Virus record (IMG/VR): IMGVR_UViG_2778261543_000003
Location: 1-15,756 of that record
Source of the DNA: a virus
Taxonomy: Duplodnaviria; Heunggongvirae; Uroviricota; Caudoviricetes
DNA: 15,756 bases
Reading direction: 5' to 3' (one strand)
The position numbers and the translations under genes were made by a program. The notes under the pieces are model-generated. The model had not been told where the DNA came from and did no database searches. It saw nothing but the letters and a program-made list of their open reading frames with translations. Positions 26-15,756 of this stretch are shown here, one piece after another. How positions within the stretch are numbered: position 1 is the stretch's first letter; each line of letters begins with the position of its first letter.

Positions 26-26
26 T

Positions 27-515
27 TCACTCTCCTTTGATGCGAATGCCAGCGGCGCGGATTGCAGCGATGACTTCAGAAACTTTGTATGCCATTACCG
101 TTTGGTAATCATCGTGAAAATCTGTTCGATGAAGCATACTGCTACGTTCCGGGATCAGTATTTCCCGCGCTTCCAGTTCTGCAATGCGCTTCTCTGCGGC
201 TTCCAGCTCAACACGCAGCCTCCCAACCGTAAGCGCAATATCCTCGTTCTCCTGGTCGCGGGATTTGATGTATTGCTGGTTCCTTTCCCGTTCATCCAGT
301 AGTGCCAATGCAATCTTTGGATTAAAGGCAGCAATAAATTCAGCGTTGTTTTTCAGAACGTGTTGCGCAATGGCCTGACTACTTAGTCGGACCTCATAAC
401 CACGTGCGCCACGGTGTGGTTTATATGAGTCCCAGTCTCCCCACGTTGCTTTTTCTGCCGCCTCACGCAGTACCTGATAGTCAATCTTGCTCACTGGTTG
501 CCTCCTTTGCGCCAC
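27..515 (-). CDS. Phage protein with coiled-coil character, possibly Ead/Ea22-like
   Basis: 162-aa ORF in the Ea22-equivalent position distal to the recombination genes; heptad-like [16 protein letters not shown] segment. Family name is from memory only. Confidence 0.55.
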
Positions 516-658
516 ATCGCATTCAGATATTTGTTTTGATTCACTGACGGAAAAGAATTTCTCTTAAGCAATTCCTCTCTCGATGGCATTGGCTTTACGC
601 GTTGGCGAATAATCATTTCTGCCGGAAGAATGCTGGGATTGTATGCAAGTCCTCTCAT
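491..658 (-). CDS. Small hypothetical protein (55 aa, start MRGLAY)
   Basis: ATG at 658 lies 6 nt after GAGGAA; the upstream gene's TGA stop overlaps this RBS. The longer track ORF (to 811) overlaps the upstream gene and is less likely. Confidence 0.35.
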
Positions 659-668
659 GGTAAATTCC

Positions 669-965
669 TCAGTCATTACTGATAGCGCCATAGCGTGAGC
701 GGTAATTACGCAGGCGCGGGTCGATATATTCAGGGAAGTGGGTATATGTGGCTTTGCGGAATGGTCGGATTGATGTCTGGTAAATTCGATCGCGTTCTTC
801 TTTCTCTGCAAGCCATATGCAGTGGCGAAACTCCTTTTCCTCTTTCGTTTCCTGCGGTAGCGACATTATCCGGTCGTAGTTTTTCCTGAATTTATCCAGC
901 ACCTCCGATACGGAATTGCCGGAACAGCGGCGCGCGTCATCCGCACCATACAAAGGCGCTGGCAT
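669..965 (-). CDS. Hypothetical phage protein (98 aa)
   Basis: AGGAG 6 nt upstream of the ATG at 965; tightly packed between the exonuclease and downstream genes on the same strand. Confidence 0.6.
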
Positions 966-981
966 GTTTTTCTCCTGTTGA

Positions 982-1530
982 TTATTTAGCTAACTTTTTC
1001 CAGATCGCTGAAACGTATTTGGCTTGGTGGATGGCATCATCAAGCGCGTTGTGGCGAGTTCCTTTGAATGGCATATCTCGCTTAGGGTTGAATCCTATTA
1101 CCTTTCCAAGCTCGACGATTGTTCTTACGTCGCGGTCATTCCACCACTGCCATGGAACTGGCTGCCCTGTCAGCGAATAACTGTTTCGGAGAATAACGCA
1201 GTCAAATGATGCTCCATTCCCCCAAACCTGAACGAATTTGTGGTTAGCGTTCTTTATGATGAATTCAGATAACCATGAAAGAGCCGTTGAAAGCTCCTGA
1301 GTGTTGCTGGTTAGCGATTTTCTGGCTTCTTCACTCTGTTCCAGCCACCATAAAATCGTTGAAGCGTCAGGACGCGCTCGATATCGCATTGATGATTCAA
1401 GCGAGATATTTACCGAGAACTCTTCTCCTGTTTCTCCGGTATTCGGGTCAAAGAATACCGCCCCAATAGAAATAACTGGCGCGTATGGCCCGTTGCCCAT
1501 TGTTTCAAGGTCAACCATCAAGTGATTCAT
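982..1530 (-). CDS. DEDDh-type 3'-5' exonuclease (DnaQ-like fold)
   Basis: N-terminal MVDLETMG (Exo I D-x-E motif) and C-terminal HNALDDA (Exo III H-x4-D motif); sits directly downstream of SSB. Confidence 0.8.
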   Translation of the reverse strand: MNHLMVDLETMGNGPYAPVISIGAVFFDPNTGETGEEFSVNISLESSMRYRARPDASTILWWLEQSEEARKSLTSNTQELSTALSWLSEFIIKNANHKFVQVWGNGASFDCVILRNSYSLTGQPVPWQWWNDRDVRTIVELGKVIGFNPKRDMPFKGTRHNALDDAIHQAKYVSAIWKKLAK

Positions 1531-1538
1531 GTAAGTCC

Positions 1539-2054
1539 TTAAATTGCGTGAATAGCGTGACGAGGGAAGGGGAGAGTTACTGGTGCAAAGGGGATATCGT
1601 CGTCAAAATCCATAGGTGGTTCGCTGTGATTTCCCTGCTGCTGAGGTTGCTGTCTTTGTTGCTGACCATTATTTCGCTGAGGTGAAGACTGTTCATTGCC
1701 TCCTTGCTTGCCACCAAGCATTTGCATGGTTCCACCAACGCCCACGATGACTTCGGTAGTGAACCGATCCTGTCCGCTTTGATCCTGCCATTTTCTTGTC
1801 CGCAATTTGCCTTCAAGATAAACCTCAGAGCCTTTTCGCAGATATTCGCTGGCAATTTCTGCCAGTTTCCCGCTCATTACCACGCGGTGCCACTCCGTCT
1901 GCTCCTTTTGCTCTCCAGTTTTCTTATCACGCCATTGTTCTGACGTAGCAACGGTAAGGTTTGCAAATGCCGTTCCTGATGGTGAATATCTGATTTCTGG
2001 ATCATGCCCAAGGCGACCAATAATGATCACCTTATTTACGCCTCTGCTTGCCAT
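1539..2054 (-). CDS. ssb: Single-stranded DNA-binding protein with extended C-terminus
   Basis: OB-fold N-terminus closely resembling E. coli SSB ([33 protein letters not shown]), Gly/Gln-rich linker and acidic tip [11 protein letters not shown], followed by 15 extra residues ([15 protein letters not shown]). Confidence 0.9.
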
Positions 2055-2762
2055 TTATGCCGCCTGTTTTAGTTCGTTAACTCTGATGTTCATTACCTGA
2101 ACGCATTTAGCCTGCGCCTCCTCGTTGCCAGCCATTAATTGCCAGTCACGCTGATAACGCTCGATGAGTTTTTTCTTGTCAGTTTCTGTTGACGCATAAT
2201 CGCTGAAGTCTTTCAGGATTTGTTCGCAGTCAACCGATGGAGATTTCTGGTTGGTATTTTCTGGTGATGGTTTGTTATCTGATGCTGGGATTGCCCATCC
2301 CGGCAGCGATGGAGGGAGCCAGTAAAATCCTGTTCCATCCTTGAGTTTTGCCCTGTGCCATCCCTGCTTTTTATCGAGAGATGTTTGTGCGAAACCTTCC
2401 TCAAGGTTATACAGATACCGACCGATTCCCCATTGAACGGCAGCACGCTTCATTGCACCGGAACGACCACCTTTGACGGCTTCTACCTGCGTGTTTTCAG
2501 CAGCATCCCATTTGGTTACCCATTCGGAATCAATCTTGATTGATATGCCGCATTCAACTCCGCCGTTGTTGGGAATATCGCGGTATTCATTGCGCCATCC
2601 TGCTTTGCCGCAAACATCGTCCAGGCGTTTCATGATTGCCCGGTTCGTGGCATAAGCCAGCACCATAGCCCACACTTTGCCATCGCGTGTTTTACCGCTT
2701 TGCTGTATTCGCCATTCGATATCTTCAGGGCTGAATGGCTCATCGAATTTATTCAAATCCAT
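2055..2762 (-). CDS. Rad52-family single-strand annealing protein (Sak-like recombinase)
   Basis: Motif GGRSGAMKRAAVQWGIGRYLYNL resembles the conserved Rad52/Sak hairpin region; gene is adjacent to SSB and an exonuclease; stop TAA abuts the ssb ATG. Confidence 0.65.
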   Translation of the reverse strand: MDLNKFDEPFSPEDIEWRIQQSGKTRDGKVWAMVLAYATNRAIMKRLDDVCGKAGWRNEYRDIPNNGGVECGISIKIDSEWVTKWDAAENTQVEAVKGGRSGAMKRAAVQWGIGRYLYNLEEGFAQTSLDKKQGWHRAKLKDGTGFYWLPPSLPGWAIPASDNKPSPENTNQKSPSVDCEQILKDFSDYASTETDKKKLIERYQRDWQLMAGNEEAQAKCVQVMNIRVNELKQAA

Positions 2763-2770
2763 AATTCACC

Positions 2771-2941
2771 TCAGAATGGACACGGCCCAAGGAAATAACG
2801 CTGATTTAATACTTCGACTCGGGACAAATTAAGGCATACCCGCATTCCTTCGCGGTCGCCATTATGGCGATACCAGAGAGCTTTCTGCGTGTACATGCGT
2901 CTCTGTAACTTGCTCTCCTTCACTGTGGTTGCAAGTGACAT
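2771..2941 (-). CDS. Small hypothetical protein (56 aa, MSLATTVKESK...)
   Basis: Not in the ORF track (under 60 aa). AAGGAGATATTC-ATG RBS; its stop overlaps the RBS of the Rad52-like gene. Confidence 0.35.
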   Translation of the reverse strand: MSLATTVKESKLQRRMYTQKALWYRHNGDREGMRVCLNLSRVEVLNQRYFLGPCPF

Positions 2942-3020
2942 GAATATCTCCTTCGTTACCGATTAATTCTTTCATCTGACGAATGAATTCTTCGTCTGAC
3001 CAGTTATCTGTAAAACTCAT
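2862..3020 (-). CDS. Small hypothetical protein (52 aa, MSFTDNWSDEEFIRQMKELIGNEGD...)
   Basis: ATGA stop/start overlap with the upstream small ORF; overlaps the 2771-2941 ORF in another frame, so at most one of the two may be complete. Confidence 0.25.
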   Translation of the reverse strand: MSFTDNWSDEEFIRQMKELIGNEGDIHVTCNHSEGEQVTETHVHAESSLVSP

Positions 3021-3169
3021 TTCCTGCGATACCATGGAAGGTTGATAGCTGATTTCATCGCTTTATTTGCTTCAAGCCACATTTTTGAATCACCAATAAA
3101 TCTGGCTATTACTGCTTTGTTCTGTGCAGCACGAAGCATCTGGTGATTGATGGCTATTTCATTGCGCAT
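3017..3169 (-). CDS. Small hypothetical protein (50 aa, MRNEIAINHQMLRAAQNKAVIARFIGDSKMW...)
   Basis: GGAGG 6 nt upstream of the ATG at 3169; occupies the kil-equivalent position just upstream of the recombination genes (positional inference only). Confidence 0.4.
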   Translation of the reverse strand: MRNEIAINHQMLRAAQNKAVIARFIGDSKMWLEANKAMKSAINLPWYRRK

Positions 3170-3288
3170 AACGCCTCCAGTTGTTTCTTTGCTGCTCTGA
3201 TTAATTGTTTAACTCGGCGTGATAATTCAGATTCGTGCGGGTAGAAAGCGGACATGACGCCGCTACCCGCGAGCTGAAAGTGCATCAT
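3154..3288 (-). CDS. Small hypothetical protein (44 aa, MMHFQLAGSGVMSAFYPHESELSRR...)
   Basis: TAAGGAG 7 nt upstream of ATGATG at 3288; the track's longer form (start 3363) has no RBS and would abut the upstream stop. Confidence 0.45.
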   Translation of the reverse strand: MMHFQLAGSGVMSAFYPHESELSRRVKQLIRAAKKQLEALCAMK

Positions 3289-3363
3289 GGGTAACTCCTT
3301 ATATTTGATTGCATAACGAAAACGCCTCGAGTGAAGCGTTATTGGTATGCGGTAAAGCCGCAC

Positions 3364-3732
3364 TCAGGCGGCCTTGATCGTCATATCATCTGAATCAAAT
3401 ATTCCTGATGTATCGATATCGGTAATTTTTATTCCTTCACTACCATCCATTGGAGGCCATCCTTCCTGACCATTTCCATCATTCCAGTCGAACTCACACA
3501 CAACACCATATGCATTTAAGTCGCTTGAAATTGCTATAAGCAGAGCATGTTGCGCCAGCATGATTAATACAGCATTTAATACAGAGCCGTGTTTATTTAG
3601 TCGGTATTCAGAGTCTGACCAGAAATTATTAATCTGGTGAAGTTTTTCCTCTGTCATTACGTCATGGTCGATTTCAATTTCTATTGATGCTTTCCAGTCG
3701 TAATCAATGATGTATTTTTTGATGTTTGACAT
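3364..3732 (-). CDS. Strongly acidic hypothetical protein (122 aa)
   Basis: Clean ORF with GAGGAA upstream; by my count about 22 Asp/Glu against about 8 Lys/Arg; lies between the pL-proximal cassette and the recombination module. Confidence 0.7.
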   Translation of the reverse strand: MSNIKKYIIDYDWKASIEIEIDHDVMTEEKLHQINNFWSDSEYRLNKHGSVLNAVLIMLAQHALLIAISSDLNAYGVVCEFDWNDGNGQEGWPPMDGSEGIKITDIDTSGIFDSDDMTIKAA

Positions 3733-3750
3733 CTATTCATTTCCTCATAG

Positions 3751-3778
3751 ATAAAAAATCGCCCTCACATTGGAGGGC
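3751..3778 (-). terminator. Intrinsic terminator (minus strand) between the AT-rich cassette and the acidic-protein gene
   Basis: Plus-strand ataaaaaatc-GCCCTC-acattg-GAGGGC; on the minus strand a 6-bp GC stem followed by a run of 6 U. Confidence 0.6.
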
Positions 3779-3884
3779 AAAGAAGATTTCCAATAATCAG
3801 AACAAGTCGGCTCCTGTTTAGTTACGAGCGACATTGCTCCGTGTATTCACTCGTTGGAATGAATGCACAGTGCTTATTCGCAGT

Positions 3885-4211
3885 CTACATAATCATTCCG
3901 GTTATTATTACCATTTCAATATCACTATCTTTCATAATGATTGGAGTTGAGTTATCAACTTTACTTTTACTCCATTTTCCTGCATCAGTTTTTACCGCTC
4001 CACAATAAGAAAGCCAATCATTATCACAATGTTCTGGATCGCTGATTCTGACAAGAACACGTGATAGTGCTTTTTCGATACTTTCATCACAATTAGCATT
4101 TGTGTAATTGCCGTGAGACAATTTTAAATCGTTAACTTCATCTTCATTGGCATCAAAAATATAGATTTCAGTCGACTCTGGAACATTTTCATAAACCATT
4201 AAAACTTTCAT
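3885..4211 (-). CDS. Acidic hypothetical protein (108 aa, start MKVLMVYENVPE); second gene of AT-rich cassette
   Basis: Start chosen at the ATG at 4211 (GGGGTAAAA-ATG) because the track's longer start at 4331 overlaps the upstream gene; region is visibly AT-rich. Confidence 0.5.
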   Translation of the reverse strand: MKVLMVYENVPESTEIYIFDANEDEVNDLKLSHGNYTNANCDESIEKALSRVLVRISDPEHCDNDWLSYCGAVKTDAGKWSKSKVDNSTPIIMKDSDIEMVIITGMIM

Positions 4212-4257
4212 TTTTACCCCATATTGTTTATGCCAAAAATAAAGTCGGCCATGCGGC

Positions 4258-4728
4258 CTAGTAGAATACCCAATTTTCTGCTTCTTGGTTGTGTCCAAAG
4301 TTATATTCAATATCTGGTGTTGATGTATCAATATTCTTCATCCCATCAACAAGAGTTGATACAACAGCCAAATCTTGTTTGATTCTCATTAAATGGTATT
4401 TCTTCCGGCGCAATAAACTTTCAATGGCAAGTTTCTTCGTTGGGAATGCAAAAGATCTTTCTGCATTTTTTGCTACTTTCTTAATTGCATATCTATTTCT
4501 CCTTTGTTTCCATTCCTGTAACCACTGATTTGGTGCTGGTTTAAAACCAACAACCCAATGCGCAGGAACCAACCATGCATAATGCTCTGTCTGATGAAAA
4601 GCTATATATTGAAGTGCGAATATTTTTATCCCATCTTCTTCAACTGTCGCCTGGAATCTCCAGAAAACAGGCATTCCATCATGTTCAGTTTCTGATTCAG
4701 GAAAAGGTACGCTCCATGATTTTGTCAT
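4258..4728 (-). CDS. Hypothetical protein (156 aa) translationally coupled to N
   Basis: N stop TGA, then GGTGAGAT, then ATG at 4728; AT-rich relative to N; no family recognised. Confidence 0.7.
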   Translation of the reverse strand: MTKSWSVPFPESETEHDGMPVFWRFQATVEEDGIKIFALQYIAFHQTEHYAWLVPAHWVVGFKPAPNQWLQEWKQRRNRYAIKKVAKNAERSFAFPTKKLAIESLLRRKKYHLMRIKQDLAVVSTLVDGMKNIDTSTPDIEYNFGHNQEAENWVFY

Positions 4729-4736
4729 ATCTCACC

Positions 4737-5036
4737 TCAAATAAGTGGTTTGCTGCCTAATTTCATTTTCTGGCGACCAACACAAGTCACACCCATTTCA
4801 CTGCGTGGCTTGCGGTAGTAAATACGATTCTGTTTACTCTCGACTTCTTCTGCCTTCTTGCAGCGAAGGCTTCCGAGTGATGCTGCTTTGTCTGCTCTGA
4901 CGCAACCAGAGAGCTTTAGCGCATTTTTTCGCGCCAGTCGCTGCTCTTGCATTGCCTGTTCACGTTGAGCCTGTCTGCGTGCTCTGCGGCGATTTCTGGC
5001 GTTATCGTCAGCCAGATATGTAATGACTACTGTCAT
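4737..5036 (-). CDS. N: Antitermination protein N
   Basis: Arg-rich N-terminal motif (DDNARNRRRARRQAQREQ) and C-terminus YYRKPRSEMGVTCVGRQKMKLGSKPLI closely matching the lambda N C-terminus as I recall it; GGAGG 7 nt upstream of the ATG at 5036; nutL lies upstream. Confidence 0.75.
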   Translation of the reverse strand: MTVVITYLADDNARNRRRARRQAQREQAMQEQRLARKNALKLSGCVRADKAASLGSLRCKKAEEVESKQNRIYYRKPRSEMGVTCVGRQKMKLGSKPLI

Positions 5037-5076
5037 GTTGACCTCCGGGAAGGTACACATCCTTGTGTGTCGATGA

Positions 5077-5196
5077 TTATTTGTTTTTGCGTTCCCACAT
5101 CCAGTCATCTACTTCAGACCAGATAGTGAAACCGAAGCAGATGGCGAATGTGGTAACTAAACCACCGAGAATTGGGTTGGTCATGATGTCTAACAT
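5077..5196 (-). CDS. Small predicted membrane peptide (39 aa, MLDIMTNPILGGLVTTFAICFGFTIWSEVDDWMWERKNK) in the N leader
   Basis: Not in the ORF track. GAGGAA 6 nt upstream of ATG; one hydrophobic helix plus a charged Trp-rich tail; lies between the leader inverted repeat and N. Confidence 0.35.
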   Translation of the reverse strand: MLDIMTNPILGGLVTTFAICFGFTIWSEVDDWMWERKNK

Positions 5197-5367
5197 TTTC
5201 TGTTCCTCAGATGATTAGCTTTGGTGGTGTGGTAGGTGGGAGACCCATTTCGACCCGCTTCGTCCGACTTCAATTCGGCAATAGTCCCGCAGGCCTCGCC
5301 GCTTTACGTGCGACATATTCCCGTCCATGAACCCTTCACCACACCCCAAAGCCAACTACTCTTTGGT

Positions 5368-5408
5368 TCCCGCATTTCGGCGGGACAATCCCATCAATGT
5401 TAAAGAGC
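5368..5408 (-). promoter_or_regulatory. nutL (boxA GCTCTTTAA plus boxB hairpin)
   Basis: Minus-strand GGCTCTTTAACA ... TCCCGC-cgaaau-GCGGGA; the same arrangement occurs on the plus strand at 7082-7125; boxA matches the lambda CGCTCTTA consensus. Confidence 0.6.
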
Positions 5409-5454
5409 CTGCCAATCTGTTCCGTTTGGCTACCAGCGTCCTGCTGATGGCTTA

Positions 5455-5496
5455 AAGATAACTTAGGTTATAGGTGTGGTCAATAACCTAATTTAT
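5455..5496 (-). promoter_or_regulatory. pL promoter with operators OL1/OL2
   Basis: Minus-strand TTGACC (5483-5478), 17-nt spacer, TATCTT (5460-5455); operator ATAACTTAGGTTAT at 5458-5471 overlaps the -10 and ATAACCTAATTTAT at 5483-5496 overlaps the -35. Confidence 0.55.
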
Positions 5497-5660
5497 ATTT
5501 TGTGGTAAATAAGTTATAAGTGATGGATAACAAAGGTATTTTATTTTTGTAAATGTTGCTGATTGATTGGTGTTTGAGGGCTTGCGTGCGGGGTGAAGGT
5601 GTTACCTTTGGCTTGATGCTTGTCTATGATGATGATGGGTGATTGGGTGGTGAACGGCAG

Positions 5661-5695
5661 GAAAAGAAAACCCGGCGCTGAGGCCGGGTGTTTTT
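5661..5695 (-). terminator. Intrinsic terminator ending the cI operon (potentially bidirectional)
   Basis: CCCGGC-gctgag-GCCGGG stem-loop flanked by a T-run on the plus strand and an A-run (U-run on the minus strand); starts right after the stop of the 5694-5990 gene. Confidence 0.7.
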
Positions 5696-5990
5696 AGTCT
5701 TTTCTTTTGCTTAGCATTTCGTCGATTTCTAAGTCAATACGATATTGATCTATTGCTTTTCTCTCGTTTGGGGTTGGTATTTTATATTGTTCAATTAGAT
5801 CTGTTGTGTATTTTATTTCATCTAATGTGATTTTTATATCAGAGAGAATCTCTTTTATATCAATTAGATGCTCTTCTTCTTTTGCGCGATTAGAGCTATG
5901 TTCAATCATTTGAGATAGCTTTTTACTAATGCTTAGCAAAACAAAAAGAATGATGATCAAAACAACAACAAAAACTATCAGAAATTCCAT
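5694..5990 (-). CDS. AT-rich single-pass membrane protein with coiled-coil-like C-terminal region, cotranscribed with cI
   Basis: GGAGGGATA-ATG RBS 40 nt downstream of the cI stop; hydrophobic N-terminus EFLIVFVVVLIIILFVLLSI, then a charged, periodic Ile/Leu segment; followed by a terminator. Confidence 0.7.
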   Translation of the reverse strand: MEFLIVFVVVLIIILFVLLSISKKLSQMIEHSSNRAKEEEHLIDIKEILSDIKITLDEIKYTTDLIEQYKIPTPNERKAIDQYRIDLEIDEMLSKRKD

Positions 5991-6030
5991 TATCCCTCCG
6001 CACTTCCGTAAGTCTTCTTCTGATTATCGG

Positions 6031-6738
6031 TTACCAACTATGAGACGACCAGAATACTCTGCCAATAATCCTTACGGTTTCATGAAATTCATCTCTATCC
6101 ATTACTTCATCCGGGTACTCTTCGCGATTTATTGATCTGATTATCACCGATGTAGGGGTGGCGATTAATGTTTTTACTCGTAACAAATCAGACTGGCAAA
6201 TAGCGTAGGTTTTACCATCTCTGATTGTGGTATCTTGCGTGTTAACACCAACAACATCGCCATCGTGAAGCGTTGGTTCCATGCTTTGCCCTACAACCCT
6301 AACTAGCTTGGCTGATCTTTCAGATACTCCCATCTTTTTCAGATAGTGCTTTCTGAAAACCAAAGAGAACTCCGATGATTCCTCTAGCTCGCAGCTACCG
6401 CTTCCAGCTGAAAGCGAAACGTTAAGAAGAGGCAACGCAACAAACTCGTCATCGTTTCTTTTAATGTCTTCCCATACCACAGCTTTTAAAGATGACTCAC
6501 GGACATTGGATGGTTCTTCATGTGCACCATCCCTCATTTCACCAATACCAGAACTAAGCCATTCAGGGCGCACTTTTAAAGCATTGGCTAATTCAACCAT
6601 CTTGCGAGATCCGTTTGTTTTACCGGACGACATCTTCTGTATGGCTGGCTGAGATATTCCAACCATGTCAGCAAGCTGTGATTGTGATACCCCTGCCGAG
6701 CTCATGGCTGCATTTAGTCTTTCTGCGAATGTTTTCAT
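6031..6738 (-). CDS. cI: cI-type repressor (HTH plus S24 LexA-like peptidase domain)
   Basis: HTH SQSQLADMVGISQPAIQKM; S24 signature GQSMEPTLHDGDVVGV and a downstream Lys (LRVKTL). Start taken at MKTF (6738) because the longer track start at 6768 would overlap an operator. Confidence 0.85.
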   Translation of the reverse strand: MKTFAERLNAAMSSAGVSQSQLADMVGISQPAIQKMSSGKTNGSRKMVELANALKVRPEWLSSGIGEMRDGAHEEPSNVRESSLKAVVWEDIKRNDDEFVALPLLNVSLSAGSGSCELEESSEFSLVFRKHYLKKMGVSERSAKLVRVVGQSMEPTLHDGDVVGVNTQDTTIRDGKTYAICQSDLLRVKTLIATPTSVIIRSINREEYPDEVMDRDEFHETVRIIGRVFWSSHSW

Positions 6739-6750
6739 ACCCACAAATCT

Positions 6751-6816
6751 ATAACTACGGTTATCCAAAGTAAAATAACAAAGGTTATTGCTATTTTTTA
6801 TAACTTGAGTTATCTT
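6751..6816 (+). promoter_or_regulatory. OR operator triplet with pR (and divergent pRM) region
   Basis: ATAACTACGGTTAT (6751-6764), ATAACAAAGGTTAT (6775-6788) and ATAACTTGAGTTAT (6800-6813) at 24-25 bp spacing; candidate pR -35 TTGCTA (6788-6793) and -10 TATCTT (6811-6816). Confidence 0.6.
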
Positions 6817-6849
6817 TGGTTATAAGTAATGACCACAAGAGGTATGCTC

Positions 6850-7074
6850 ATGAATTTAGTAATTCAACGAGCCTTGAAAATTGTCGGTAGCCAAAAGCGC
6901 CTTGCCGACAAGTGTGGTGTAACGCAGCCAGCAGTACACAAATGGCTGAAAGGCGGGTTGGTCTCTCCAGAGAAAGTTACCGCCATCGTTAACGCCACTG
7001 GAGGGCAGATCAAGGCTTACGAAATTCGCCCCGATTTGCCACACCTGTTTCCAAAACCGAATCAGGCAGCATAA
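6850..7074 (+). CDS. cro: Cro-like HTH regulator (YdaS-like)
   Basis: First rightward gene after OR; AAGAGG 7 nt upstream of the ATG at 6850; HTH SQKRLADKCGVTQPAVHKWLK; C-terminal YEIRPDLPHLFP. Confidence 0.65.
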   Translation: MNLVIQRALKIVGSQKRLADKCGVTQPAVHKWLKGGLVSPEKVTAIVNATGGQIKAYEIRPDLPHLFPKPNQAA

Positions 7075-7081
7075 GTAACAC

Positions 7082-7125
7082 CGCTCTTTAACAGTCATGG
7101 TCCTCATTCCCGCCGAAATGCGGGA
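7082..7125 (+). promoter_or_regulatory. nutR (boxA CGCTCTTTA plus boxB hairpin)
   Basis: CGCTCTTTAACA then TTCCCGC-cgaaau-GCGGGAA between cro and cII; inverted counterpart of nutL. Confidence 0.6.
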
Positions 7126-7183
7126 ATGCAACGCGCATAAGTTGATGCGCATAACTTCTTATTAGTTAAGGAAATACTTACAT

Positions 7184-7462
7184 ATGCAACTTACAAGTAC
7201 TCGCAAGAAAGCGAATGCAATTACAAGCAACATCCTGAATCGAATTGCTGTACGTGGTCAGCGAAAGGTTGCCGACGCGTTAGGGATTAATGAATCGCAA
7301 ATTTCGCGATGGAAAGACAGCTTCATCCCAAAAATGGGAATGCTTCTGGCTGTTCTTGAATGGGGTGTTGAAGACGAGGAGTTGGCGGAACTGGCTAAGA
7401 AAGTAGCCAGAATGCTGACAAAAGAAAAAGCCCCGAAGAACGGCGAATTCTTCGAGGCCTGA
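7184..7462 (+). CDS. cII: Transcriptional activator cII
   Basis: Strong resemblance to lambda cII as I recall it (ILNRIA, SQISRWK, IPKMGMLLAVLEWGV). Confidence 0.85.
   Translation: MQLTSTRKKANAITSNILNRIAVRGQRKVADALGINESQISRWKDSFIPKMGMLLAVLEWGVEDEELAELAKKVARMLTKEKAPKNGEFFEA
7418..7454 (-). terminator. Minus-strand intrinsic terminator inside the cII 3' end (candidate OOP-like antisense RNA terminator)
   Basis: 7-bp stem CGAAGAA/TTCTTCG (7434-7440 with 7448-7454) followed on the minus strand by GGGCUUUUUCUUUU. Confidence 0.45.
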
Positions 7463-7496
7463 TGTAGAAAGACTGGATCAATCCACAGGAGTAATT

Positions 7497-7658
7497 ATGA
7501 CAAAACGTCGTAAGAAATACCAGGAAAAAGAAGAGATTCGACACCCTGATTCACCTGAGGGATTAGTGGTAGCCGCAGCAAATAACAGGGCGTTCGCAGA
7601 GCGCCTTGTTGGTGTTTACAGACTAGCCAAAGCAGGAGTGAAACATGGGCGTCGTTAA
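7497..7658 (+). CDS. Small basic hypothetical protein (53 aa, MTKRRKKYQEKEEIRHPDSPEG...)
   Basis: AGGAG 5 nt upstream of ATG; its 3' end overlaps the O start by 14 nt; not in the ORF track. Confidence 0.35.
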   Translation: MTKRRKKYQEKEEIRHPDSPEGLVVAAANNRAFAERLVGVYRLAKAGVKHGRR

Positions 7659-8466
7659 GTTAGCTGATTACAGGCCTCAACTGGAGGTCGTGGAGCATCG
7701 CGTGGCAGATACCGAAGATGGTTTCATGCGCGTTGCTAACGAGATTACCGACAGTCTGCTGATGGCTGATTTAACCGTCCGGCAGTTGAAGGTGATGCTC
7801 GCTATCATGCGCAAGACATACGGATTCAATAAGCCGATGGATCGACTCACAAACACGCAGATAGCAGCCATGACAGGTATTCATCACACTCATGTTTGCG
7901 CTGCCAAGCGCCAGCTTATTGAGCGTAAATTCCTCATTGCTGATGGCGTGAAAATCGGAGTGAACAAGGTGGTTTCTCAGTGGATTAGCCAGGACAGCTT
8001 AACATTAGCTAAAACAGCTAATAAAACATTAGCCAAGTCGGCTAATGGGTATAAGCCAAGTCAGCTAAACACAAAAGACAATATACAAAAGACAATAAAT
8101 ACAAATACCCCCTTACCCCCTAACGGGGGCGGCGATGGGCAGGTTAAACCTGAACGTCGCAAGGCAGAACGAATCGACTACGAATCCTTCCTGAACGCCT
8201 ACAACACCGAAGTCGGTGACAGACTTCCGCATGCTGTTGCGGTCAACGAGAAACGCAAACGCCGCCTGAAGAAAATCATCCCGCAACTGAAAACGCCAAA
8301 CGTGGACGGTTTCAGAGCGTATGTCAGGGCGTTTGTGCATCAGGCCAAGCCGTTTTACTTCGGAGACAACGACACGGGCTGGACGGCCGATTTTGATTAC
8401 CTGCTGAGGGAAGATTCGTTAACGGGAGTACGGGAAGGGAAGTTTGCAGACAGGGGGATTGCATGA
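7645..8466 (+). CDS. O: Replication initiation protein O
   Basis: N-terminal domain resembles lambda O ([28 protein letters not shown]); AGGAG RBS; iteron-like repeats inside the linker; ATGA overlap with the downstream helicase. Confidence 0.8.
7990..8105 (+). repeat. Candidate replication origin: iteron-like repeats plus AT-rich tract inside O
   Basis: AGCCAAGTCGGCTAA (8031-8045) and AGCCAAGTCAGCTAA (8054-8068), further AGCTAA motifs at about 10-bp phasing, then an A-rich tract with ACAAAAGACAATA repeated. Confidence 0.45.
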
Positions 8467-9839
8467 GACAGGATATCGAAGCGAGCGTTATCGGTGGCCT
8501 GCTGATTGGTGGATTAACACCAACCGCCAGCGACGTTCTGGCAACGCTGGAGCCGGAAGCGTTTTCAATTCCGCTCTACCGGAAAGCCTTCGAGGTTATC
8601 CGCAAGCAGGCGAGAAACAGAAACCTAATCGACGCGCTGATGGTTGCAGAGGCGTGCGGAGAGGAGCATTTCACGTCAATCCTGATGACCAGCAAGAACT
8701 GCCCGAGTGCCGCAAACCTGAAGGGATATGCTGGAATGGTCGCGGATAACTATCACCGCCGTCTGGTGCTGGAAATCATGGACGAAATGCGTGAACCAAT
8801 TCAGAGCGGAACCATCGACGCATCGAGTCAGGCGATGGACGAGCTGGTAAAGCGTCTTTCAGCCATCAGAAAGCCACGTGACGAGGTAAAACCTGTACGG
8901 TTAGGGGAAATCATCACCGACTACACTGACACGCTTGACAGGCGTCTGAGGAACGGAGAAGAGTCAGATACCCTGAAGACCGGAATCGAAGAACTTGACG
9001 CTATCACCGGAGGGATGAACGCTGAAGACCTGGTGATTATCGCCGCTCGTCCTGGTATGGGGAAAACCGAACTGGCGCTAAAGATTGCCGAAGGTGTTGC
9101 AAGCCGCGTTATTCCTGGTTCTGACGTCCGGCGCGGAGTATTGATTTTCTCGATGGAAATGAGCGCATTGCAGATTGCAGAGCGAAGCATTGCCAACGCC
9201 GGGAGGATGTCGGTTAGCGTACTGCGAAATCCTGCATCGATGGATGACGAGGGCTGGGCACGTGTTGCTAACGGCATGAGTCAGCTTGCAGATTTGGATG
9301 TATGGGTAGTCGATGCCTCGCGGTTATCGGTCGAAGAAATACGCTCAATCGCAGAACGGCACAAACAGGAAAATCCAAACCTGTCACTCATCATGGCGGA
9401 TTATCTTGGCCTGATTGAGAAGCCGAAAGCAGATCGCAACGACCTTGCAATTGCTCACATCTCCGGAAGCCTGAAGGCGATGGCGAAAGACCTGAAAACG
9501 CCTGTTATCTCCCTGAGTCAGCTTTCGCGCGATGTTGAGAAGCGACCAAACAAACGCCCGACAAACGCAGATTTGCGTGATTCAGGAAGCATTGAGCAGG
9601 ACGCAGACTCAATCATCATGCTCTATCGGGAAGCGGTATATGACGAGAACAGTAGCGCCGCGCCATTTGCTGAAATCATTGTGACAAAAAACCGTTTTGG
9701 CTCACTTGGTACGGTTTACCAGCGGTTCTGCAACGGACACTTTGTTGCATGTGACCAGGATGAAGCCAGACAGATTTGCACAGCATCAAATGCACCTGCT
9801 GCGCGTGGCAGACGATATGCACAAGGGGCTGACGTATGA
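8463..9839 (+). CDS. DnaB-family replicative DNA helicase
   Basis: DnaB-like N-terminal domain followed by a RecA-type ATPase core with Walker [10 protein letters not shown]; sits directly after O. Confidence 0.9.
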
Positions 9840-9916
9840 CCATCTACATCACTGAGCTGATAGCAGGCCTGCTGGTAATCGCAGGCCTTTTTATTTGGGG
9901 GAGAGGGAAGTCATGA
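9836..9916 (+). CDS. Micro-ORF for a 26-aa hydrophobic peptide ([26 protein letters not shown])
   Basis: ATGA overlaps at both ends (with the helicase stop and the next gene start); could equally be chance. Confidence 0.25.
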
Positions 9917-10095
9917 ATCTGGACGAGCAAGATGCACAAACTATTAGCTCATACATAAGGGCATCAAGACCAGATTACAAAGGTCCGGTATTCGTAGATT
10001 TATCTCGCCTTGAGGAGATTTACATGTGGGAAGCAAAGCTACGTACGCATCTTTTTATTCGTAAGATGACTAGCAACATTACAAAACCAATGTAA
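9913..10095 (+). CDS. Hypothetical protein (60 aa, start MNLDEQ)
   Basis: GGGGGAGAGGGAAG upstream of the internal ATG at 9913; nin-region position. Confidence 0.5.
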   Translation: MNLDEQDAQTISSYIRASRPDYKGPVFVDLSRLEEIYMWEAKLRTHLFIRKMTSNITKPM

Positions 10096-10109
10096 CTGGA
10101 GAGGTGAAT

Positions 10110-10325
10110 ATGAGCACACTCGCAGACCTTATTCATGCCGATATGGCGGAAGATGGAGCAAGGCGTAATAGGTACTGGAAATCATCAAGCCTTCCAGTTT
10201 GTGAAAGATTCAACCACAGGCCAAAACCAAAACGTAGCCGACGAGACAAAGTGTTGAAAAAACTCATGCAAATTAACATGGCTGGTTTTGTCAGATTCGT
10301 GAGTGAAACGACTAACGGGGATTGA
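10110..10325 (+). CDS. Hypothetical basic protein (71 aa)
   Basis: GGAGAGG RBS upstream; same-strand tight packing. Confidence 0.5.
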   Translation: MSTLADLIHADMAEDGARRNRYWKSSSLPVCERFNHRPKPKRSRRDKVLKKLMQINMAGFVRFVSETTNGD

Positions 10326-10326
10326 T

Positions 10327-10593
10327 ATGGACGAATCAAGAAAGCAGTTTGAAGAATGGTTTGAAAATTACACCGGATGTGATCCTAAAAATAAAATATA
10401 CGCCAATATGGTTGAGATGTATTGGCAAGCGTGGCAGGCATCGCGAGCAGCTATCGAGATTGAGTGTCCTGGAAAAAGAGAGCGTGAGGCATTTTCTACC
10501 GATTTCGAGGATGGGGTCACATTTGGTTATAACGACGCAATTAGTGAATGCGAAGGACGGATTCGCGCTGCTGGAGTCAAAGTGAAGGAGTGA
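10327..10593 (+). CDS. Hypothetical protein (88 aa, start MDESRKQFEEW)
   Basis: Start 1 nt after the previous stop; the alternative frame 10322-10585 looks less protein-like. Confidence 0.5.
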   Translation: MDESRKQFEEWFENYTGCDPKNKIYANMVEMYWQAWQASRAAIEIECPGKREREAFSTDFEDGVTFGYNDAISECEGRIRAAGVKVKE

Positions 10594-10595
10594 CG

Positions 10596-11006
10596 ATGAA
10601 GCAAACAATCTTCCTCCGAACTAAGCAACAACAGCAAGCCGCAATCAACGCCATCCTCGCAACACCACTCGATAAAGACAAGCCAGTCACCATCCGCATT
10701 ACTGACTACAAGCGCAACCTTGACCAGAACGCAAAATTTCACGCGATGGTCGCAGATATCGCTAGGCAAGTTCAGTGGCGCGATAAATGGTTAAAACCAG
10801 AACAATGGAAGGTTTTGTTGATCAGCGGTCATGCAGTGGCAACAAAGCAGGAAGCTGATGTTTTGCCCGGGCTTGAAGGCGAATACGTCAACATTCGCGA
10901 AAGCAGCGCGCAGATGAGTGTGAAGCGTATGGCAAGCCTGATTGAGTACACAACAGCCTGGGCTATTGGTCAGGGTGTCAGATTTACTGACAGGAGGTAT
11001 GAATGA
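10596..11006 (+). CDS. ninB: NinB-family recombination protein (Orf-like)
   Basis: AAGGAG RBS upstream of MKQTIF; pattern LDQN.K ... W..KW...E.WK resembles lambda NinB as recalled; followed by NinE/F/G. Confidence 0.75.
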
Positions 11007-11185
11007 GACGACAGCGACGAAGTTTCACCGACATAATCTGCGAAAACTGCAAATACCTTCCAACGAAACGCTCCAGAAATAAACCCAAGCCAATCCCAAA
11101 AGAATCTGACGTAAAAACCTTCAATTACACGGCTCACCTGTGGGATATCCGGTGGCTAAGACATCGTGCGAGGAAAACAAGGTGA
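11003..11185 (+). CDS. ninE: NinE
   Basis: 60-aa protein [23 protein letters not shown]... matching my recollection of lambda NinE; ATGA overlap with the ninB stop. Confidence 0.65.
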
Positions 11186-11352
11186 TTGACCAAAATCGAA
11201 GTTACGAACAAGAAAGTGTCGAGCGAGCTTTAACGTGCGCTAACTGCGGTCAGAAGCTGCATGTGCTGGAAGTTCACGTGTGTGAGCACTGCTGTGCAGA
11301 ATTGATGAGCGATCCGAATAGCTCAATGCACGAGGAAGAAGACGATGGCTAA
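11182..11352 (+). CDS. ninF: NinF (GTG start)
   Basis: [37 protein letters not shown] matches lambda NinF as recalled; GTGA overlap with the ninE stop. Confidence 0.6.
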
Positions 11353-11950
11353 ACCAGCTCGAAGGAAATGCAAAATATGCAAGGAATGGTTTCACCCGGC
11401 ATTCTCAAATCAGTGGTGGTGCTGCCCGGAACACGGAACTCAATTAGCACTCGAACGACGAAGCAAAGAACGCGAAAAAGCGGAAAAAGCAGCAGAGAAG
11501 AAACGACGACGAGAGGAGCAGAAACAGAAAGATAAACTGAAGATTCGAAAACTCGCCTTAAAGCCCCGCAGTTACTGGATTAAACAAGCCCAACAAGCCG
11601 TAAACGCCTTCATCAGAGAAAGAGACCGCGACTTACCATGTATCTCGTGCGGAACGCTCACGTCTGCTCAGTGGGATGCCGGACATTACCGGACAACTGC
11701 TGCGGCACCTCAACTCCGGTTTGATGAGCGCAATATTCACAAGCAATGCGTGGTATGCAACCAGTACAAAAGCGGAAACCTCGTTCCGTATCGTGTCGAA
11801 CTGATTAATCGCATCGGGCAGGAAGCAGTAGAGGAAATCGAATCAAACCATAGCCGCCATCGCTGGACTGTCGAAGAGTGCAAGGCGATCAAGGCAGAGT
11901 ACCAACAGAAACTCAAAGACCTGCGAAACAGCAGAAGTGAGGCCGCATGA
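11345..11950 (+). CDS. ninG: NinG (Rap) recombination protein
   Basis: Near-identity over long stretches to lambda NinG as recalled ([43 protein letters not shown]). Confidence 0.8.
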
Positions 11951-11997
11951 CGTTCTCAGTAAAAACCATTCCAGATCACAAGGGAGAAGCCGCATGA
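11947..11997 (+). pseudogene. ninH: ninH remnant (16 codons, [16 protein letters not shown]) bridging ninG and Q
   Basis: First 10 residues match the lambda NinH start as recalled, then the frame ends after 6 more codons; ATGA overlaps with both ninG and Q. Confidence 0.4.
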
Positions 11998-12512
11998 GCA
12001 TAAGAGAACTAAACCTCACCAAAGAACAGCATGAGTGGCTGAATGGCTGGCTTGAACTGTGGGGCGCATGGGTTTATTCAGGTCGTCTGGAAAAGCGCAT
12101 GAGCAGCGTAATAGCGAAGTTCATGGAGAGCGTAGAGCCGGGAAGAGTTATGACAAGGCCAATGTGCAATGATGATGATGGAATGTTGATTTCTCAGGTC
12201 GTCGATTCCGTCATGTGCATTGACAAGAAAGCCTTTGGCATCCTCCTCAGCTACTACGCTCATGGTTCATCTAAGCGAGCAATTGCATCCTACTATCACG
12301 CGACTGCAAAGCCACGCAAGATGTGTGGACGTGGTGGCGAGGGATGGAGAAAACCTTCACTGGCAACCTGTAGAAACGAAATTGACGACATCCTGAAAGC
12401 GTCGTTATTTGTTTTGTACCAGCCAATGCAAAATGCTTTCAAAATGCGCAAACGTGTTGAGAAAGTTAAGCATGTTGCTGTTAAAAGCCTTGACATGCAA
12501 TTATCCATTTAG
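11994..12512 (+). CDS. Q: Late-gene antiterminator Q-like protein (non-lambda Q type)
   Basis: Occupies the Q position immediately after the nin genes and before the pR'-like promoter, tRNAs and lysis genes; contains Cys/His-rich segments; family assignment from memory only. Confidence 0.6.
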   Translation: MSIRELNLTKEQHEWLNGWLELWGAWVYSGRLEKRMSSVIAKFMESVEPGRVMTRPMCNDDDGMLISQVVDSVMCIDKKAFGILLSYYAHGSSKRAIASYYHATAKPRKMCGRGGEGWRKPSLATCRNEIDDILKASLFVLYQPMQNAFKMRKRVEKVKHVAVKSLDMQLSI

Positions 12513-12519
12513 CCATAAT
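12490..12519 (+). promoter_or_regulatory. Candidate late promoter pR' (overlapping the Q 3' end)
   Basis: Perfect -35 TTGACA (12490-12495), 18-nt spacer, -10 CATAAT (12514-12519). Confidence 0.45.
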
Positions 12520-12533
12520 TAGAAGGTAAGCTG

Positions 12534-12571
12534 CCGTTAGTGACTCTTAAGTTGCAACGGTGGCTTTTTTT
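12534..12571 (+). terminator. Possible tR'-like terminator (non-canonical)
   Basis: CCGTT ... AACGG stem with a large 17-nt loop followed by a run of 7 T; structure is weak. Confidence 0.3.
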
Positions 12572-12575
12572 ATTT

Positions 12576-12650
12576 GGGTCAGTCGTATAAAGGTCATTAC
12601 GGAAGGCTGTTAACCTTCTTATCGTGGTTCGAGTCAACGCTGTCCCGCCA
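12576..12650 (+). tRNA. tRNA-Asn-like (anticodon GUU), possibly degenerate
   Basis: Cloverleaf foldable by hand: anticodon arm GAAGG-CTGTTAA-CCTTC, T-loop TTCGAGT, 3' CCA; but one acceptor mismatch, one T-stem mismatch and an odd D-arm. Confidence 0.4.
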
Positions 12651-12655
12651 AATAT

Positions 12656-12731
12656 GCTGGTTTAGCTCCAATGGTAGAGCAGTCGCCTTGTAAGCGAATG
12701 GGTAGCGGTTCAAGTCCGTTAACCAGCACCA
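12656..12731 (+). tRNA. tRNA-Thr (anticodon UGU)
   Basis: 76 nt; perfect 7-bp acceptor stem GCTGGTT/AACCAGC, D-stem GCTC/GAGC with GG in loop, anticodon loop CTTGTAA, T-loop TTCAAGT, 3' ACCA. Confidence 0.75.
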
Positions 12732-12974
12732 TAACTGAGCCGTAGCCACTGGCTATCCTGAATTCATCAGTGATAGTTATGCTGCGGCCTTCTGCACATG
12801 ACCTTCGTGAAAGCGGGTGGCAAGAGGCTGCGCTAACAACCTCCTGCCGTTTTGCCCGTGCATATCGGTCACGAACAAATCTGATTACTAAACACAGTAT
12901 CCTGGATTTGTTCTATCAGTAATCGACTTTATTCCTAACTAAATAGAGCAAATCCCCTTATTTGGGGGTAAGAC

Positions 12975-13298
12975 ATGAAGATGCCAGAAAAACATGACCT
13001 GTTAGCCGCCATTCTCGCGGCAAAGGAACAAGGCATCGGGGCAATCCTTGCGTTTGCAATGGCGTACCTTCGCGGCAGATATAATGGCGGTGCGTTTACA
13101 AAAACAGTAATCGACGCAACGATGTGCGCCATTATCGCCTGGTTCATTCGTGACCTTCTCGACTTCGCCGGACTAAGTAGCAATCTCGCTTATATAACGA
13201 GCGTGTTCATCGGCTACATCGGTACTGACTCGATTGGTTCGCTTATCAAACGCTTCGCTGCTAAAAAAGCCGGAGTAGAAGATGGTGGAAATCAATAA
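12975..13298 (+). CDS. S: Holin (lambda S type, dual-start MKM)
   Basis: Essentially the lambda S sequence as recalled ([39 protein letters not shown]...). Confidence 0.9.
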
Positions 13299-13758
13299 TC
13301 AACGTAAGGCGTTCCTCGATATGCTGGCGTGGTCAGAGGGAACTGATAACGGACGACAGAAAACCAGAAATCATGGTTATGACGTCATTGTTGGCGGAGA
13401 GCTATTCACTGATTACTCCGATCACCCTCGCAAACTTGTCACGCTAAACCCCAAACTCAAATCAACAGCCGCCGGACGTTACCAGCTTCTTTCCCGTTGG
13501 TGGGATGCCTATCGTAAGCAGCTTGGCCTGAAAGATTTCTCTCCGAAAAGCCAGGACGCTGTGGCATTGCAGCAGATTAAAGAGCGTGGTGCTTTACCGA
13601 TGATTGATCGCGGTGATATCCGTCAGGCAATCGACCGCTGCAGCAATATCTGGGCTTCACTGCCGGGTGCTGGTTATGGCCAGTTCGAGCATAAGGCTGA
13701 CAGCCTGATTGCAAAATTCAAAGAGGCTGGCGGAGCGGTCAGAGAGATTGAGGTATGA
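13282..13758 (+). CDS. R: Endolysin (lambda R-type lytic transglycosylase)
   Basis: Matches lambda R as recalled ([39 protein letters not shown]). Confidence 0.9.
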
Positions 13759-14222
13759 GCAGAGTAACCGCGATTATCTCCGCTCTGGTTATCTGCATCA
13801 TCGTCTGTCTGTCATGGGCTGTTAATCATTACCGTGATAACGCCATCGCCTACAAAGAGCAGCGCGATAACAAAGCCAGTGAACTGGAGAAGGCGAACGC
13901 GATCATTACTGACATGCATCAGCGTCAGCGTGATGTTGCTGCGCTCGATGCTAAATACACGAAGGAGTTAGCTGATGCGAAAGCTGAAAATGATGCTCTT
14001 CGGCGCAAGCTTGATAATGGTGGCAGGGTGCTCGTCAAAGGAAAATGCCCTGTGCCATCCTCAGCCGAAGCCTCCAGCGCCTCCGGCATGGGCAATGATG
14101 CCACCGTCGAACTCTCTCCAGTTGCTGGACGAAACGTTCTCGGTATCCGGGGCGGAATTATCCGCGACCAAACAGCACTGAGAACGCTTCAGGGATACAT
14201 AAGGACGCAATGCCTTCGATGA
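13755..14222 (+). CDS. Rz: Rz (inner-membrane spanin)
   Basis: N-terminal half matches lambda Rz as recalled ([31 protein letters not shown]...); C-terminal half diverges. Confidence 0.85.
13975..14181 (+). CDS. Rz1: Rz1 (outer-membrane lipoprotein spanin) embedded in Rz in the +1 frame
   Basis: Signal peptide ending in a lipobox-like VAGCSS followed by a Pro-rich segment ([11 protein letters not shown]), as in lambda Rz1. Confidence 0.7.
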
Positions 14223-14362
14223 TAGCGATAATTTTACTCATCATCCTTCACATCTGGCTCTGTAGACAGGGTGGTGATCACTTCTGGAGTGAATCCAGAT
14301 TAAACATCTCATTGCTGATGCTTGATATTGAGCATCTGGCGCGCGGTAAGGGGCTGCGTTGA
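14210..14362 (+). CDS. Small hydrophobic ORF (50 aa, [22 protein letters not shown]...) overlapping the Rz stop
   Basis: AAGGA 5 nt upstream of ATG; hydrophobic N-terminus; not in the ORF track. Confidence 0.3.
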
Positions 14363-14396
14363 GATAAGAGCCAGTCATCACAAACACCAGGATTTA

Positions 14397-14420
14397 GCCT
14401 CGCATTTGCGGGGCTTTTTT
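14397..14420 (+). terminator. Intrinsic terminator downstream of the lysis cassette
   Basis: GCCTCGC-attt-GCGGGGC stem (with one G-U pair) followed by TTTTTT. Confidence 0.6.
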
Positions 14421-14568
14421 ACATCTGCAGTAAACCGCGCATCGCAGCGCGTAACAATCCCGAGTCTTTCAGAAAGCTGAGCCTGAGAACTGCCGTATAT
14501 GGTGGCGACCATCTCGGGGACGGCTTTTCTGTGCGAACAGGCTCATCTTTCTAAAAGGTAAAGACGCA

Positions 14569-15111
14569 ATGAACTACCCAACCGTTGTTAACGATATAGA
14601 TTTCAGAGACCTAATTTTTGTAGCAAACAACGATCCGGTTACAGATTCTTTTATGGTGGCAAAAGCATTTGGAAAGCTGCCGAAGAACGTAGTTCGCGAC
14701 ATTGAGCGAACCATAGAAGCTTGCCCTCCTGAGTTTGATACAAAGCTCAACTTTGAGCTTTGCTATAAAAACAATGAGTTACAGAATGGTAAGCCGCAAA
14801 AATTCTACCGTCTCCGCAAGGATGGGTTGATGCTTTTGGTTATGTCCTACACCAAAAAAGAAGCAATGCGTATCAAAATTGCTTACATCAACGCATTTAA
14901 CTGGATGTACGCCATGCTTCAGGTTGGTCATCGTCAATTTGAAGAAGAGAGAAATGCCGTAATGCTGGAGTACATGAAAGAGAAGGATGTTGCCAGCATG
15001 TCAGGTCGCCTGCTAAATCGCTGGGGCAAAATTAAGAAGCCACAGTTGCTGGCTAGAATTGAACGCCTTGAACAGCACGGGCAAACCGTAATCCCCGGAC
15101 TCATCAATTAA
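14569..15111 (+). CDS. Rha-family phage regulatory protein
   Basis: N-terminal pattern V..FGK...NV.RDIE ... NFE ... Y.L.KDG.MLLVM..T...A...K.AYINAFN typical of the Rha domain as I recall it. Confidence 0.65.
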   Translation: MNYPTVVNDIDFRDLIFVANNDPVTDSFMVAKAFGKLPKNVVRDIERTIEACPPEFDTKLNFELCYKNNELQNGKPQKFYRLRKDGLMLLVMSYTKKEAMRIKIAYINAFNWMYAMLQVGHRQFEEERNAVMLEYMKEKDVASMSGRLLNRWGKIKKPQLLARIERLEQHGQTVIPGLIN

Positions 15112-15330
15112 CGGCAGTACCGCGAAACAACCCAAGCCAGTAAGTGGGGAAATAACACTGGCAGCCACTGAAAGATGAACCTCCAGCCTTATGGCAAAAA
15201 AGATTCTTTGTGGTGGCGGACTGATGGAAAGACATCGGATAGAATAAAACAGTGGCTAGGGTAGCTCCCGAAAAGCGGAATCGTCACCGCCAGCCACTGA
15301 ATCTATGACGAACAACTAGACGAGGTTGAT

Positions 15331-15573
15331 ATGAGTGAAATTGATAAAATAATAAATGGTACATGTAACTTTCAATCAATGCCGCCAGGTAGTTATGTAA
15401 AACAATGTAGTGAAATAGTTAATGGTCAGCTTGTAATGTCAAATGCAGGACGTGGAGTTTCTACGGATGAAAAAAAATCAATAAATGAAGCCCTATTAAG
15501 CATCAATGTTTTTGACTTGTTTCGCCCATCTTGGGTTATTTTGCAAAATAGTAGTCAATTCCCACATTATTGA
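15331..15573 (+). CDS. AT-rich hypothetical protein (80 aa)
   Basis: GAGG 6 nt upstream of ATG; markedly AT-rich by eye; no family recognised. Confidence 0.45.
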   Translation: MSEIDKIINGTCNFQSMPPGSYVKQCSEIVNGQLVMSNAGRGVSTDEKKSINEALLSINVFDLFRPSWVILQNSSQFPHY

Positions 15574-15756
15574 TAAATTAATTAATAAATTGGTCGCTAA
15601 GTCGGCCTTTTTTATTGCCATCACAAAAGCCATTCCTTACTGAGTGGCTTTGATAATGGCTTATACCCTACACGGGATAACTTAACTGATATCCCTTTTA
15701 AGGAAGGTGCGAATAAGCAGGTCATTTCTTCCCAAGCTGACTCGCTGATTAAAATT

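Follow-up and report, generated by a model that had tools for sequence, protein, structure and literature searches.

Gene order between ninG and the late promoter

The window, by which we mean the whole stretch of 15,756 nt that was analysed, carries ninG, a very short open reading frame and a late antiterminator gene Q, followed by the late promoter. The features of this interval are as follows.

11345..11950, plus strand: ninG (rap-type junction endonuclease), 201 aa; Pfam NinG, E=6e-90
11947..11997, plus strand: ninH-ninI remnant, consisting of NinH residues 1-10, two junction codons and NinI C-terminal residues in frame; whole sequence ATGACGTTCTCAGTAAAAACCATTCCAGATCACAAGGGAGAAGCCGCATGA
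11947..11975, plus strand: ninH-derived part of the remnant, 29 nt that agree without mismatch with the start of ninH in lambda, Sf6 and Bas106; left breakpoint after 11975
11976..11980, plus strand: filler TCACA, five bases assignable to neither ninH nor ninI; TAACA in a second lineage
11981..11997, plus strand: part derived from the ninI 3' end, AGGGAGAAGCCGCATGA, with the NinI-frame codons G-E-A-A-stop; holds the Shine-Dalgarno sequence of Q
11994..12512, plus strand: Q late antiterminator, phage 21 family, Sf6/phage L subtype, 172 aa; Pfam Phage_antitermQ, E=1e-25
12490..12519, plus strand: late promoter pR', TTGACA-18-CATAAT, with AATTATCC/ATTTAGCC in the spacer

The remnant frame runs from ATG to TGA and comprises 16 codons in the translation of the window, in agreement with the location, frame and ATGA overlap into a Q-like gene given in a preliminary description of this DNA. 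Its start codon overlaps the stop codon of ninG (TGA, 11948-11950) as ATGA, and it has a Shine-Dalgarno sequence of its own, GTGAGG. The TGA at its end overlaps the ATG of Q, again as ATGA, with an overlap of 4 nt. Further upstream, ninB and ninE (ATGA), ninE and ninF (GTGA) and ninF and ninG (8 nt) overlap as well, and overlapping cistrons are thereby continuous from ninB into Q, with the remnant included. This overlapping-cistron layout was reportedly described for the lambda ninR region by Kroger and Hobom in Gene in 1982.

The Q protein of the window shares 98% identity with Sf6 gp59 and 85% with the Q protein of phage 21 (162 aa). Only three residues differ from Sf6 gp59, among them Cys75 (12216-12218; VMCIDKK), which is Tyr in phage 21, in Sf6 and in one IMG/VR contig, L038 (VMYIDKK). 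The promoter pR' overlaps the stop codon of Q (12510-12512). Its spacer holds the phage L-type pair AATTATCC/ATTTAGCC, a putative Q-binding element proposed for phage L (PMC8022706), in place of the ATTGAGCA/AATGAGCA of phage 21.

Breakpoints of the ninH-ninI deletion

Breakpoints were mapped against Sf6 and Bas106, which carry the full order ninG-ninH-ninI-Q21, and against lambda. The likeness of the frame's start to lambda NinH, pointed out in the preliminary description, is borne out by the ninH 5' end of all three phages, to which the first 29 nt are identical (29/29). A 59-nt block comprising the end of ninG and the start of ninH matches hundreds of phage records at 98-100% (E about 1e-21), and the likeness is therefore not a chance one. 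The long match to Stx1a_10051, in which ninH is intact, stops at window position 11972 and provides an independent mark of the left breakpoint. On the other side, the last 17 nt of the remnant equal the ninI 3' end of lambda at 16 of 17 positions (lambda CAGGGAGAAGGCGCATGA, window AAGGGAGAAGCCGCATGA; AGGGAGAAGsCGCATGA), as the suggested resemblance of the junction upstream of Q to the lambda ninI/Q junction implied. The intact ninI ends in CAGGGAGAAGGCGCATGG/A, followed by Q, and the window reads AGGGAGAAGCCGCATGA from 11981 onward. NinI terminates in IQVQGEGA* in lambda and in QVQGEGAWA* in Sf6 and Bas106; alignment of these C-termini with the remnant tail, GEAA*, places the tail in the NinI frame.

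Alignment to the lambda nin region and its relatives, the check that had been proposed, thus positions the breakpoints after 11975 and before 11981. The sequence across the junction reads ...CCAGATCACAAGGGAGAAG.... Missing between the breakpoints are 804 nt, the same number in the coordinates of lambda, Sf6 and Bas106, which correspond to NinH residues 11-68 and to NinI except for its last few residues; a loss of ninH and ninI sequence had been correctly anticipated. As five filler bases were added, the net loss is 799 nt, which results in a +1 shift and leads the NinH frame into that of NinI. The remnant reads as an in-frame NinH'-'NinI fusion, a point absent from the preliminary description. 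Both outer boundaries are those of the intact ninH-ninI module (orf221 phosphatase) of lambda, Sf6, Bas106 and HF4s: the ATGA boundary of ninG and ninH with the first 10 NinH codons on the left, and on the right the ninI 3' end with the Shine-Dalgarno sequence of Q and a stop codon overlapping the Q start (ATGA in lambda).

The origin of the filler was sought in two IMG/VR pattern scans, one with the filler plus the right flank and one with the left flank plus the filler, which returned junction-bearing contigs and a single unrelated chance match (L051). A search for a donor inside the deleted ninH-ninI segment yielded chance 7-mers only in the range of 7-9-mers. A parental ninI or another gene ending in ...GATCACAAGGGAGAAG might conceivably have supplied the five bases; the IMG/VR scans found none. 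A microhomology-mediated deletion was rejected as a simple explanation: the ninH sequence ...ATTCCAGA resembles ...ATTCAGGTA of ninI, but a crossover between the two predicts CCAGGTACAGGGAG, which differs from the observed junction. The boundary motif GCCGCATGA shows no enrichment across the window when one mismatch is allowed (5 found, 4.8 expected); it occurs exactly twice, once at either end of the remnant. Matches to a terminator-like consensus inside ninI are weak, lie on the plus strand and are no more numerous than in shuffled sequences.

Earlier annotation and distribution of the scar

The scar is already known from GenBank annotations of phage 21, a fact that the preliminary description overlooked, and is an ordinary one, common to many relatives. 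The record of the phage 21 early region (AJ237660) annotates a 57-nt "ninH" CDS at 4079-4135 and places a misc_feature, "border lambda homology", at nt 29/30, the same base as the left breakpoint. In the complete phage 21 genome (OL657228), the corresponding CPT_21_62 is listed as a pseudogene, "lambda NinH fragment", in which 10 N-terminal ninH codons precede 7 others. SfI carries a 57-nt "NinH protein" for which phage 21 is cited. We found no paper discussing the phage 21 remnant in the open-access literature, and prior knowledge consists of these annotations. Phage 21 and the window have in common the left breakpoint, the filler TCACA, the ninI-derived 3' end and the place between ninG and a Q21-family gene, and 109 of 111 nt across the junction are identical.

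The junction occurs in nine phage records, among them phage 21, SfI and PhiR12 phages, and in 43 IMG/VR contigs and one metagenome contig. Of 5426 complete E. coli genomes, 54 carry it, and the PGAP annotation of RefSeq genomes is without a gene at this place. The GTDB species representatives (one genome per species) gave no match to the junction pattern. A ninG-remnant-Q junction of the phage 21 type is present in the laboratory strain E. coli Origami2-DE3 (NZ_CP084529.1, 4561480-4561590). All copies have the same breakpoints, and the filler is the same but for one variable base (TCACA or TAACA). The flanks vary: upstream lie either ninG alleles 91-98% identical to that of the window or a rusA-like gene, and downstream lies one of two subtypes of Q, that of phage 21 with 162 aa and about 86% nt identity or that of Sf6/L with 172 aa and 98-99%. 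Identical breakpoints and filler between varying flanks indicate one old event that was spread by recombination in the flanking sequences.

The gene that replaces ninG before the remnant in three IMG/VR contigs (L038, 3030-3425; L042; L052) encodes a protein of 131 aa, by its sequence a putative RusA-like Holliday-junction resolvase. It ends in ...LLEAA* with GGAGGCCGCATGA, nearly the same boundary as that of ninG (...SEAA*, GTGAGGCCGCATGA) and of ninY/ninH in ST160. A short boundary common to non-homologous genes would fit the old 'linker' idea of module exchange in the nin region.

The allele carried by the window

The window shows the elements of a phage 21-type scar, namely a left breakpoint after ninH nt 29, a filler T(C/A)ACA, the ninI 3' end AGGGAGAAGNCGCATG and a Q21-family gene. 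It departs from the type at the end of the frame. The 47 other copies compared end in GCA TGG GCA TAA, which yields 18 codons, a TAA 10 nt inside Q and a Q protein starting MGIREL; in phage 21 this end reads GGC GCA TGG GCA TAA. The window instead ends in GCC GCA TGA, with the stop codon two codons earlier, 16 codons, a 4-nt overlap and a Q start of MSIREL. A single G-to-A change (ATGG to ATGA) accounts for both Gly2Ser in Q and the conversion of Trp to a stop codon in the remnant. The ATGA allele was otherwise found only in a metagenome contig (OLQN01008237.1), there combined with Q of the phage 21 type, and since it has been seen twice, the variant is real. ATGA also stands at the same boundary in lambda (ninI/Q) and in P22-like phages (ninZ/23). 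The difference between 16 and 18 codons is allelic and concerns the same scar, and this point-mutation allele, with a remnant two codons shorter, is the sole local peculiarity of the window.

Arrangements of the ninG-Q interval and exchange of Q

At least four arrangements exist between ninG and Q21-type genes: ninH-ninI, ninI alone, ninY-ninH-ninZ, and the remnant. The first is that of Sf6 and Bas106. The second, ninG-ninI-Q, is represented by JLK-2012, phi458 and related Stx phages (L053, 903-1574; L054, 951-1622), in which ninI follows ninG directly. Their ninI has an alternative N-terminus (MNIYE... rather than MRYYE...), and ninH is cleanly absent at an ATGA boundary, another route to its loss, with the break between genes. 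The third, ninG-ninY-ninH-ninZ-23, is found in P22-like ST160; like ninG-ninI-Q, it occupies the same variable slot as the remnant of the window, with overlapping boundaries of the ...GC(C/T)GCATGA type. These three arrangements differ from one another by whole genes at gene boundaries and only the remnant breaks inside genes, which marks it as the product of an illegitimate deletion.

The preliminary description had taken the locus for a recombination scar at which a non-lambda Q allele was joined in the same event that removed ninH and ninI. The scar and the non-lambda allele, of phage 21/Sf6 type, stand; the joint event is not supported, as the intact phages Sf6 and Bas106 already possess a Q21-type Q. 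In both, with ninH and ninI complete, this gene lies behind the same ninI 3' end, AGGGAGAAGGCGCATGG. The lambda record carries a misc_recomb feature at the ninI/Q boundary, and the boundary at the Q ATG belongs to the intact arrangement. Because intact ninH-ninI phages carry a Q21-type Q and because of this misc_recomb feature, we infer that the exchange of Q would have preceded the internal ninH-ninI deletion as an event of its own.

Coding capacity of the remnant and rival explanations

NinH is a Fis-like helix-turn-helix dimer, in which the DNA-binding mutants and the recognition helix map to about residues 18-35 and residues 45 and 55, in the C-terminal beta region, have been implicated in the dimer interface (PMC7166090). 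Intact NinH matches Pfam PF06322 over residues 1-60. The remnant retains residues 1-10 only, and thus neither the domain of about 60 residues with its helix-turn-helix nor the C-terminal dimerisation region, and no NinH function remains in it. Its descent from ninH is evident from the 29 identical nucleotides and from the ATGA overlap with ninG, which is that of intact phages. Nine alleles of the remnant differ by seven nonsynonymous codon variants (F>L, T>N, T>I, H>N, G>V, G>A and G>I) and by no synonymous one, while the flanking ninG and Q genes show 83 synonymous and 70 nonsynonymous variants. Judged by these codon variants, the peptide is unconstrained, and it is probably without function itself.

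That the ninH likeness is fortuitous and the frame an intergenic spacer of the Q21 module has nothing in its favour except the shortness of the match, and we give this reading practically no credence. Absence of similarity to ninH is ruled out by the 29/29-nt identity, directly after ninG as in intact phages, and by the alignments of the 59-nt block. On the right side, P22-like phages have a different sequence, the ninZ end, before the same type of Q, which assigns the bases 5' of Q in the remnant to the ninI module. Hardly more credible is a conserved gene in its own right that encodes a functional small protein. Such a gene would account for the start codon, the Shine-Dalgarno sequence GTGAGG and the stop codon, as well as for the 'NinH protein' and ninH CDS annotated in SfI and AJ237660; yet the exclusively nonsynonymous variation (7 of 7), the difference in length (16 and 18 codons), the derivation of both halves from larger genes and the pseudogene flag in the curated phage 21 record all disfavour it, and we regard it as very improbable.

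Translational coupling of the remnant to Q, put forward in the preliminary description as perhaps its only present role, is plausible from the arrangement of the frames. It is a further step to suppose that the remnant is under selection as a mini-cistron which couples Q to the translation of ninG, with ribosomes that terminate at ATGA, or 10 nt into Q, and then re-initiate setting the amount or timing of Q. Such selection would agree with the ATGA overlaps at both ends of the remnant in the window, with an in-frame deletion that puts the stop codon at the Q start, with the continuous series of overlapping cistrons from ninB to Q, and with a frame that is open in 49 of 49 copies examined. The last of these observations has, however, a simpler account. 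By an estimate from the codons, 8 of the 153 possible single-base changes in the remnant create a stop codon, so that about 0.4 would be expected and one, that of the window, was observed; with so few substitutions, an open frame of 16-18 codons is expected under neutrality among close relatives. Moreover, Q has a strong Shine-Dalgarno sequence of its own, AAGGGAG (GGGAG at 11982-11986), 7 nt 5' of the ATG, and RNA structure that might mask this site did not exceed chance (z=0.22; an equally good fold is reached by 107 of 200 shuffled sequences). The position of the stop codon relative to the Q ATG also varies by allele, between overlaps of 4 and 10 nt, with no sign of a cost. Selection for coupling therefore seems unlikely to us. 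Slightly more doubtful still is the specific version in which the remnant was selected as a very short relay cistron that would hand ribosomes from ninG (or rusA) onto the Q start, its stop-position alleles tuning Q dosage and lysis timing. Passive retention of the frame is the most likely account.

Proposed history of the deletion

We conclude that the remnant is very probably a neutral scar left by a deletion, and that it belongs to a known type, the phage 21-type ninH'-'ninI remnant. The ancestor would have had the order ninG-ninH-ninI-Q21 still seen in Sf6, Bas106 and HF4s. A single illegitimate recombination would then have taken out 804 nt, between ninH nt 30 and a point 23 nt before the ninI stop codon, and left five filler bases. 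The NinH frame would since have entered that of NinI, beginning at the ninH ATG and ending at the ninI stop codon, at or just inside the start of Q. The deletion appears to have halted just 5' of the Q ribosome-binding site; longer deletions would not be expected to survive, as late gene expression requires Q. The scar may then have entered many backgrounds through homologous recombination in the ninG/rusA and Q genes at its flanks. Ribosomes that have finished ninG probably go on to translate the remnant and stop at the start codon of Q, whereby the chain of nin cistrons would be passively kept into Q, and Q probably also initiates from its own Shine-Dalgarno sequence.

Lambdoid phages can do without the nin genes in the laboratory; these genes vary widely from phage to phage, their make-up is attributed to illegitimate recombination, and deletions of the nin region appear quickly in evolving Sf6 populations (PMC5630979). 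The classical nin5 deletion removed lambda 40,503-43,307 (PMC3349717). These laboratory deletions resemble the scar in that dispensable DNA between the replication genes and Q is lost; such deletions form with ease, and the phage tolerates or even benefits from them. In contrast to nin5, which removes the tR2 terminator and confers N-independence, the scar of the window is smaller and natural and removes only ninH and ninI. It would represent a textbook-like single illegitimate deletion in the dispensable nin region that was fixed and subsequently moved among lambdoid phages by way of its flanks. For annotation, we propose the label phage 21-type ninH'-'ninI pseudogene remnant, which denotes neither a NinH protein nor a new small gene. 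The scar can be used as a lineage marker of the module. Coupling, if real, would contribute a minor point to the understanding of how the dosage of Q is controlled.

Mosaicism of the window and sequences downstream of pR'

Mosaicism is pronounced over the whole window (1-15756): although the matching pieces are 95-98% identical, coverage in one place does not exceed 50% for any phage record, and it stays within 62% for every complete E. coli genome. Downstream of pR', a hairpin with a T-run at about 12530-12570 resembles tR'. Directly 3' of the late leader, the genes for tRNA-Asn(GTT) and tRNA-Thr(TGT) lie at 12576-12731, as they likewise do in phage 21, Sf6 and SfI, and a lambda-S-like holin gene starts at 12975.
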